The position numbers were made by a program, and so were the translations under genes. Below, piece after piece: positions 17,752 to 18,267 of a DNA stretch of 64,000 bases (position 1 is the first letter of the stretch; the number at the start of each line of letters is the position of its first letter). Below the pieces are notes generated by a model. The model was not told the origin of the DNA. It was given only the letters and a program-made list of their open reading frames with translations, and did no database searches. The DNA lies in assembly GCA_041489155.1 (NCBI GenBank), contig JBGPQP010000002.1, positions 32,001-96,000 of the forward strand, in the 5' to 3' direction. The stretch is from Candidatus Aenigmatarchaeota archaeon. GTDB taxonomy: Archaea; Aenigmatarchaeota; Aenigmatarchaeia; QMZP01; QMZT01.

Positions 17752-17921
17752 TGGGCCCGGCGGGAATCGAACCCGCGACCCCCAGATATCTTTCCGCACC
17801 GTATTCTGTCATCAACAAAAACGCAGACCTACACAGGTGAAACCTGTGTCATGCGCTTGTTTCAGCATACTTTTATCCAACAGATAAAAGTCTGGTGCTC
17901 TACCGATTGAGCTACGAGCCC
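17752..17921 (-). tRNA. tRNA-Lys(UUU) with a 97-nt intron at 37/38 (intron 17788-17884)
   Basis: Exons GGGCTCGTAGCTCAATCGGTAGAGCACCAGACTTTTA | ATCTGGGGGTCGCGGGTTCGATTCCCGCCGGGCCCA give a 73-nt cloverleaf. BHB with CUUU/AAAG helix and two 3-nt bulges. CCA not encoded. Confidence 0.93.
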
Positions 17922-17962: not shown

Positions 17963-18035
17963 CGCCCTGGCCGGGATTTGAACCCGGGTCCTCGGAGTGA
18001 CAGTCCGAGATGATAGACCACTACACTACCAGGGC
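17963..18035 (-). tRNA. tRNA-Asp(GUC)
   Basis: GCCCTGG/CCAGGGC acceptor stem, TCGGA-CTGTCAC-TCCGA anticodon arm, GGTTCAAATCC T-arm, 73 nt. Confidence 0.97.
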
Positions 18036-18154
18036 ACCGTATTTAGCTTGTGCTTGTTTGCCAGTGTTATATGTATTATTTCTAATCGAGTCCGATATTT
18101 ATAAGTTTAACAAACACAGAAAGCCAAAAAGCAAAAAGGATAAAATTAACAGTA

Positions 18155-18267
18155 GTGAGCAGCTATCTGGATTTCCCCCTTTTCAGGAGTACTTTCCAGA
18201 CCGCCGGGGAGTTTAACTTCCGTGTTCGAAATGGGAACGGGTGAACCTCCCCACTTTGGCCGCTCGT
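18155..18267 (-). rRNA. rrf: 5S rRNA, unlinked from 16S/23S
   Basis: Minus strand has the conserved CCCGTTCCCATTTCGAACACGGAAGTTAA. Terminal helix GAGCGGC/GCTGCTC. Ends are approximate. Confidence 0.9.

Follow-up and report, generated by a model that had tools for sequence, protein, structure and literature searches.

The intron of a tRNA-Lys(UUU) gene from an Aenigmatarchaeota archaeon is, on comparative sequence evidence, a real, conserved and self-directed single-guide RNA. It probably recruits L7Ae, Nop5 and fibrillarin to 2'-O-methylate its own unspliced precursor, and the wobble base U34 is the likely target. An earlier note on this DNA had described an intron-encoded, self-directed guide of the box C/D type. 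That claim is supported by an alignment of orthologous introns, in which the boxes and the complementarity are conserved and the guide covaries with its target, and by the presence of fibrillarin, Nop5 and L7Ae genes in the genome. The same note placed the target at C32 and assigned the boxes differently, and on these points the comparisons lead elsewhere.

The intron and its antisense guide

The tRNA-Lys(UUU) gene occupies 17921-17752 on the minus strand of the window, which is the whole 64,000-nucleotide stretch of DNA analyzed here, and belongs to an assembly of 1.13 Mb with a completeness of 89.65%. The order on the minus strand is 5S rRNA (18154..18267), an intronless tRNA-Asp(GUC) (17963..18035) and tRNA-Lys(UUU). 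In the latter, the 5' exon (17885..17921, minus strand, positions 1-37) is followed by a 97-nt intron at site 37/38 (17788..17884, read as 17884-17788, minus strand) and by the 3' exon, which starts with A38 (17752..17787, minus strand). The splice sites form an archaeal BHB, with two 3-nt bulges around a 4-bp helix. The BHB 3' strand (17787..17797, minus strand) comprises an outer helix strand (17797-17794), the central helix strand AAAG (17793-17790, minus strand), which pairs with C32-U35, and a bulge (17789-17787). A splicing endonuclease is encoded, in a frame of 404 aa (G000:C7:39150-39626) with two catalytic-domain matches; it may be of the three-unit type known from ultrasmall archaea. 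The intron has no match to a curated sRNA family in Rfam, only tRNA and 5S being detected at the gathering threshold. Extra introns are frequent in orthologous tRNA-Lys genes, at 30/31 and in the D-loop, variable loop and T-loop (L016, L018, L060, L068 and L072 are examples); these come and go among close relatives, in contrast to the constant guide intron at 37/38.

The target strand extends from A31 to the third intron base (17882..17891, minus strand), with C32 at 17890 and U34, whose ribose is predicted to be methylated, at 17888. The antisense guide lies within the intron (17869..17878, minus strand) and takes positions 2-11 when counted from the extended stem described below, so that 17872 is opposite U34 and 17870 opposite C32. 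Counted in this way, the guide of the window forms nine Watson-Crick pairs and one G-U pair, a length within the range of about 9-11 bp upstream of D'. Guide position 1 (17868..17868, minus strand) is an unpaired A, and its counterpart in relatives is never Watson-Crick with position 30. The positions previously given for CUGA (17865-17862) and UGAUGA (17814-17809) on the minus strand were found again, as were 12 of 13 pairs between the bases upstream of CUGA and the precursor from C28 to the third intron base, with one G-U pair and one mismatch (A x G30); C32 does lie opposite 17870, the fifth base upstream of CUGA. A second pairing proposed for the guide 3' end, with CAGAAUAC, forms in the free intron of the window, but only the UG/CA-type contact is conserved, and in a different register.

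A 7-nt Watson-Crick complement of positions 31-37 arises by chance in 1062 of 100,000 dinucleotide shuffles of the intron, and in 53 of 100,000 if it must be followed by the layout of A, stem and NRUG. Its conservation in 105 distinct orthologous genes is far stronger evidence than this shuffle test. A DNA search of 60 relatives recovered the same guide and boxes in congeners, and among 371 genomes of the phylum 62 were matched in a pattern search, a number of them by chance. A covariance model, R1, matched 53 of 151 genomes and a further model, R2, matched 39 of 80 more, these raw matches including a few Leu or Arg introns or antisense echoes. A pattern scan of GTDB (29 of 64 parts) returned 120 loci, 93 of which were chance matches; the 27 in a tRNA context were labeled by record as Aenigmatarchaeota (12), uncultured archaeon (14) and Nanoarchaeota archaeon (1). 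ARAGORN with a relaxed threshold gave mostly false calls. After curation, 105 distinct tRNA-Lys(UUU) genes across the class carry the element, the named records being mostly Aenigmatarchaeota.

Among the orthologues, the guide pairs with position 31 in all 104 genes scored (G-C in 95, A-U in 9) and with the first intron base in 103 (A-U 61, U-A 31, G-C 7, U-G 4), while the second, third and fourth intron bases are paired in 94, 55 and 45 of the 104. The guide thus covaries at position 31 and at the first two intron bases, and the guide base opposite the first intron nucleotide would fit the mature A38 in only 61 of 104 genes. Together these observations point to the unspliced precursor as the substrate. 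In alignment A1, 97.5% of cells are paired and none of 500 shuffles reached this value, a result that overstates significance because kin are not independent. Among the 23 genome matches listed for the 9-nt guide core, the tRNA-Lys gene itself is the only one recognized as an RNA gene.

Within four families of the order, R1 matched 11 of 12, 2 of 2, 7 of 7 and 13 of 14 genomes, that is, 33 of 35 non-self genomes, two of them through Leu or Arg introns only. In some other families of the class it matched none (0/16 in f27, 0/10 in f18 and 0/8 in f40). Such gaps, together with the variable sequence of D', would suit a decaying relic that no longer has a function. We find this barely credible given how consistently the four families retain the element, and the covariation largely refutes it, with compensatory changes in three helices while the loops vary freely.

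An extended C'/D' motif and the choice between U34 and C32

The conserved unit consists of the guide, a spacer ending in A, a Watson-Crick stem of unrestricted length, a bulge of 3 nt with U as its last base, and GA; its NRUG core was required by the parser. The window has the corresponding internal D'/C' motif in the form of CUGA, a stem, a GAU bulge and GA. The first stem pair of the motif is formed in 100 of 104 genes, and C' has four of seven consensus bases. The six-base extended D' element, UG-CUGA (17862..17867, minus strand), is followed by a closing stem with a variable inner hairpin between D' and C' (17814..17861, minus strand), which measures 48 nt here and as little as 6-8 nt in relatives. 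Beyond it lie the GAU bulge, GA-CA-G and an AA overhang (17804..17813, minus strand), and the UG of D' pairs with the CA at 17808-17807. The earlier note had taken UGAUGA as box C', a form found in no more than 11 of 104 genes; AUGACAG behind the stem (17812-17806) is the register borne out by the comparison.

A bipartite sRNA with degenerate terminal boxes had also been proposed. The boxes in question are strands of the splice-site helices and are not conserved, CGGA (17796-17793) being part of the BHB. No canonical terminal kink-turn of C (RUGAUGA) and D (CUGA) was found in the intron, the candidates overlapping the BHB helices, and terminal C/D boxes with a second guide were rejected for lack of conservation in the curated orthologue set. 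Nor do the orthologues have a conserved second guide or D box that would make up a Trp-type pair of guides for 34 and 39. The distance from A37 to the guide is at most 14 nt in 94 of 104 orthologues, and that from the C' tail to A38 at most 4 nt in 53 of 102. To judge from these alignments, the Lys(UUU) intron element is a one-guide, one-motif RNA.

The orthologues fall into two forms by how far the A before the stem lies from the partner of position 31. This distance is 7 in the long form (92 genes, including that of the window), 5 in the short form (12 genes) and 4 in L131, whose 4-nt spacer fits neither register; a script had split the genes into 93 and 11, and L301 was moved to the short form by eye. 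Long and short forms occur side by side within families f5, f7 and f11. The short orthologues do not have the two extra bases, so that the N+5 rule leads directly to U34, and none of the 12 has CA after GA. In the long forms, by comparison, the base at -1 pairs with C' base 5 in 92 of 92 genes (G-C 87, A-U 5) and the base at -2 with C' base 6, again in 92 of 92 (U-A 86, C-G 5, U-G 1).

UG and CA were built into the pattern that supplied the first 41 genes, and model R2 gave credit for the pair; only the variants retrieved by R1, which left the UG/CA columns unpaired, therefore form an unbiased test. All six Lys variants that R1 retrieved are double changes, A-U in G050, G029, G028, G103 and G008 (four families) and C-G in G087; a further four C-G cases and one U-G came from R2. 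About five or six independent events account for the compensatory changes. In alignment A2, whose 37 genes were picked to include variants, the two UG/CA pairs are 100% paired, with 0 of 500 shuffles as high, as against 43% for the unshifted pairing.

These comparisons suggest how the target may be chosen. The guide pairs with positions 31-37 and the first two or three intron bases, and the two bases before the four-base D' box pair with the CA of box C' and thereby lengthen stem II. If Nop5 registers on the proximal end of this lengthened stem, as the available portions of published structures suggest, guide position 1 would be an unpaired purine, positions 2-11 would pair with the stretch from 31 through the third intron base, and U34 would lie opposite position 5. 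Counted accordingly from its extended stem, the guide of the window has an unpaired A as its first base and its overhang is GAA; positions 2-11 again pair with that stretch, which would put U34 opposite position 5.

The reading first put forward, in which D' is CUGA, the strict N+5 rule applies and C32 alone is methylated in substitution for TrmJ, draws on the perfect CUGA and GAUGA of the window and on the 12 of 13 pairs. In the window itself this reading would be possible, since CUGA is perfect and positions 29 and 28 are able to pair. It is nonetheless very improbable when the relatives are considered. Only one base pair would lie between C32 and the end of the duplex. The base at -3, opposite position 30, is Watson-Crick in 0 of 91 genes and is mismatched as position 3 in the window, contrary to the four-base-box rule, which puts the target opposite the fifth base and has pairing from position 2. 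The base at -2 is Watson-Crick with position 29 in 44 of 92 genes scored and does not track it, and the UG/CA covariation, with pairing in 92 of 92, is left unexplained. The short orthologues and all sister introns indicate 34, and strict N+5 applies only when counted from the extended stem, or to the 12 short forms.

Alternatively, both registers could be used, the four-base D' directing methylation to C32 and the six-base D' to U34, much as normal and extended D' boxes give two sites in yeast U18, snR13 and snR48 (PMC5389607, in the parts available). Of the 92 long forms, 41 retain YUGA; in every long form scored, the G of AUG is a possible partner for the first D' base (as C-G or U-G), and -1 is able to pair with 28 in 83 of 92. 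Against this, position 3 of the shorter register is Watson-Crick in 0 of 91 genes, and the A-U variants break the -1 pair with C28 (C x A in 5 of 5) yet keep the stem pair. The short orthologues cannot reach C32 and give no sign of compensation. We hold double methylation to be distinctly unlikely.

Both readings that involve C32 would gain from the absence of another enzyme for that base, and no TrmJ was found in 91 genomes of the order, nor any SpoU-family gene in this genome; SpoU-family matches above cut-off occurred in two of the 91, both RlmB-like. With no TrmJ found in any of the 91, the enzyme is uninformative as a discriminator, and its apparent absence would fit the C32 idea and fit equally a lack of Cm32. 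The RlmB-like SPOUT methyltransferase (L255 and L256, in G029 and G050) is confined to one genus among the 91 genomes.

A canonical kink-turn is composed of a stem, a 3-nt bulge ending in U and tandem G-A/A-G pairs, and this pattern can be read in the window and, as NNGA, in 11 of the 12 short forms. In the long forms the second sheared pair is variable, and a four-pair helix, UGYN/GRYR, is an alternative to the kink-turn. Of the 92 long forms, 46 have G as the third D' base and nine have G as the second purine of C', which then reads GG; in all nine the first box base pairs with it. The predicted kink-turn is therefore degenerate in many long forms, which may form a kink-turn by looping out two bases or else adopt the four-pair helix.

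Protein machinery and competing folds

The genes of the C/D RNP, whose presence the earlier note had wished to see confirmed, are all encoded: fibrillarin, in a gene split over two contig ends, L7Ae, and Nop5, which retains Q296, K316, K336 and R339 of the Sulfolobus protein. A search of the genome for a stand-alone enzyme of the FtsJ type gave weak matches only, the best at 26.1 bits, and no Elp3 was found above cut-off in this 89.65% complete assembly (best match 43.5 bits, against a cut-off of 350).

Structure prediction gives the guide hairpin as the ground state of the precursor, at -64.1 kcal/mol compared with -57.7 kcal/mol for the BHB fold, and assigns U34 a pair probability of 0.987 in this hairpin. 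An alternative fold that competes with the BHB had been anticipated, and since the predicted ground state competes in this manner, the two folds should be mutually exclusive. The guide could act in cis, with a hairpin taking the place of the terminal C/D motif, and the precursor would afterwards refold into the BHB and be spliced; alternatively, another precursor or the excised intron could act in trans.

The same prediction would also suit a function that involves no methylation, in which the hairpin and its kink-turn-like motif regulate splicing, through L7Ae or a folding switch against the BHB, or stabilize the excised circle. The degenerate boxes of the long forms are in keeping with such a role. 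It is less easily reconciled with the spacing from the partner of position 31 to the box, which is only ever 5 or 7 (104 of 105 genes), both values giving C/D geometry for 34. In addition, the layout is seen again at known methylation targets (Trp, Met, and Leu C34/U34), and no such self-guide match was found in the Thr, Tyr, Ile(GAU), Ser and Gln(CUG) introns of the same genome. We therefore consider a purely structural or regulatory role unlikely, and methylation of U34 remains our preferred reading.

Known guides and related introns

The closest known system is the box C/D RNA in the intron of pre-tRNA-Trp (Haloferax volcanii; Pyrococcus sR50), which guides Cm34 and Um39 (PMC7994747, PMC4090602, as far as the accessible text goes). 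The Lys intron resembles it in being a 37/38 intron with a guide against its own precursor, a wobble target (predicted in Lys) and the same protein machinery. The Trp-intron RNA, however, is bipartite, with two guides, and is shown to act in trans, whereas the Lys intron has one guide and one motif, leaves no room for a second guide, has a six-base D' and sits in tRNA-Lys. In Nanoarchaeum equitans, the 66-nt intron of elongator tRNA-Met yields a stable C/D-like RNA proposed to be a guide (PMC3491384). It too is a one-motif guide candidate in a DPANN tRNA intron, with one D box, an altered C box and a GC-rich hairpin. The description, in the portion of PMC3491384 available, concerns Met, not Lys, and gives neither a target nor an extended stem II.

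Structural work places the target 5 nt from the proximal end of the stem, with spacer bases 2-11 paired and base 1 unpaired, and a G-G mismatch at position 3 strongly lowers activity; single-motif guides are active and specific, and a 3-base 3' overhang anchors Nop5 (PMC9670817, in part). Halfmers work in vitro, and their presence in cells is posed as a question (PMC7229835, in part). The Lys intron shares with the engineered MMG4/MMG5 and BMG1-3 a single box motif and a single guide, with register set by the stem end and a 3-nt 3' overhang, GAA here. Those RNAs are engineered and act in trans, whereas the Lys intron is a natural candidate that probably acts in cis (PMC9670817 and PMC7229835, same portions). 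Like yeast U18, snR13 and snR48, the Lys element is predicted to shift the methylated site by an extended D'; the yeast snoRNAs are eukaryotic, have rRNA targets and use both registers, whereas the long Lys register appears fixed by Watson-Crick covariation (PMC5389607, excerpts). Free archaeal sRNAs directed at position 34, those for Leu and Met in Pyrococcus and sR26, sR27, sR45, sR46 and sR51 in Pyrobaculum, likewise have wobble targets and one useful guide each; they are separate genes with both motifs, and none of those listed in the accessible text has a Lys target (PMC6009581).

The element thus appears to behave as a box C/D guide, yet fails the canonical family on the terminal motif and on strict N+5. 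No published Lys-intron guide or six-base D' of the UG-CUGA kind was found in a literature covered by main texts rather than supplements and thinly for subscription journals, and the combination is new relative to the literature found. Um34 is known in tRNA-Gln and tRNA-Leu of S. acidocaldarius (PMC7668247, in part). No report of it in tRNA-Lys was found in the accessible archaeal tRNA literature, where Table 2 and the supplements of PMC7668247 may bear on Lys.

Introns of other tRNAs share the arrangement. The Trp(CCA), Gln(UUG) and Leu(UAA) introns of the same genome have the short layout with N+5 at 34 (the strict script missed Trp and Leu, which were examined separately), and the same layout and target occur in Met(CAU), Arg(UCU) and also Trp introns of relatives. 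Five genomes have Leu(UAA) in the long form; both extra pairs are formed in four of them, and the remaining case, L306, has a C x A mismatch at the -2 pair. A short Leu form, L122, has UG before the box, which suggests that substrate pairing helps to choose the register. All of the self-guide-bearing tRNAs seen here are tRNAs of split codon boxes. With no Elp3 above cut-off in this genome, ribose methylation may be a main wobble modification in these reduced cells.

A wider view, which we put forward tentatively and regard as somewhat less probable than its opposite, is that Aenigmatarchaeota tRNA introns are natural one-motif cis guides for the wobble base of split-box tRNAs. The six-base D' of Lys and Leu would set the register by an ordinary Watson-Crick helix instead of CUGA, a natural move in the direction of the C/D-free guides that have so far been made only by engineering, and methylation would be a checkpoint that has to be released before splicing. 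If this is true, it would account for the retention of DPANN tRNA introns by giving them a function, add Lys to the tRNAs with intron-encoded guides, now Trp and the proposed Met case, and provide natural examples of halfmer guides, whose cellular existence the structural papers, in the parts available, leave open. The short and long forms offer a natural test of whether the stem end or the CUGA box fixes the methylated base; should it be the stem end, strict N+5 prediction would misassign such guides by two bases.

Several other introns have guide-like features. The tRNA-Lys(CUU) intron L009 (G025:C76:38-192) contains, by eye, a K-loop-like AUGA...GAUGA and a 7-nt guide complementary to the 3' splice junction, with position 5 opposite C39; L012 has a similar layout and a mismatch at the target. 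The tRNA L265 (G000:C1:82600-82729) reads as Ile with a UAU anticodon, which is rare in archaea, and is called Ser by ARAGORN; its intron has a remnant of the UUGA stem and no self-guide. In the tRNA-Leu(CAA) gene L262 (G000:C6:10386-10228), an intron at 31/32 has CUGA, a short loop, AUGAUGU and a guide to 33-40, with N+5 at C34; the mismatch at position 3 makes this a weaker case. The tRNA-Ser(UGA) intron L263 (G000:C9:8170-8421) has a D'/C' motif and an upstream guide that is complementary at 10 of 10 positions to the 16S rRNA of the same genome (G000:C5, around 81497), the 10-mer having four matches at other sites genome-wide. It is a candidate for an rRNA-directed guide nested in a tRNA intron, and the A opposite its guide position 5 is presumably A1408 of the decoding site in E. 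coli numbering.
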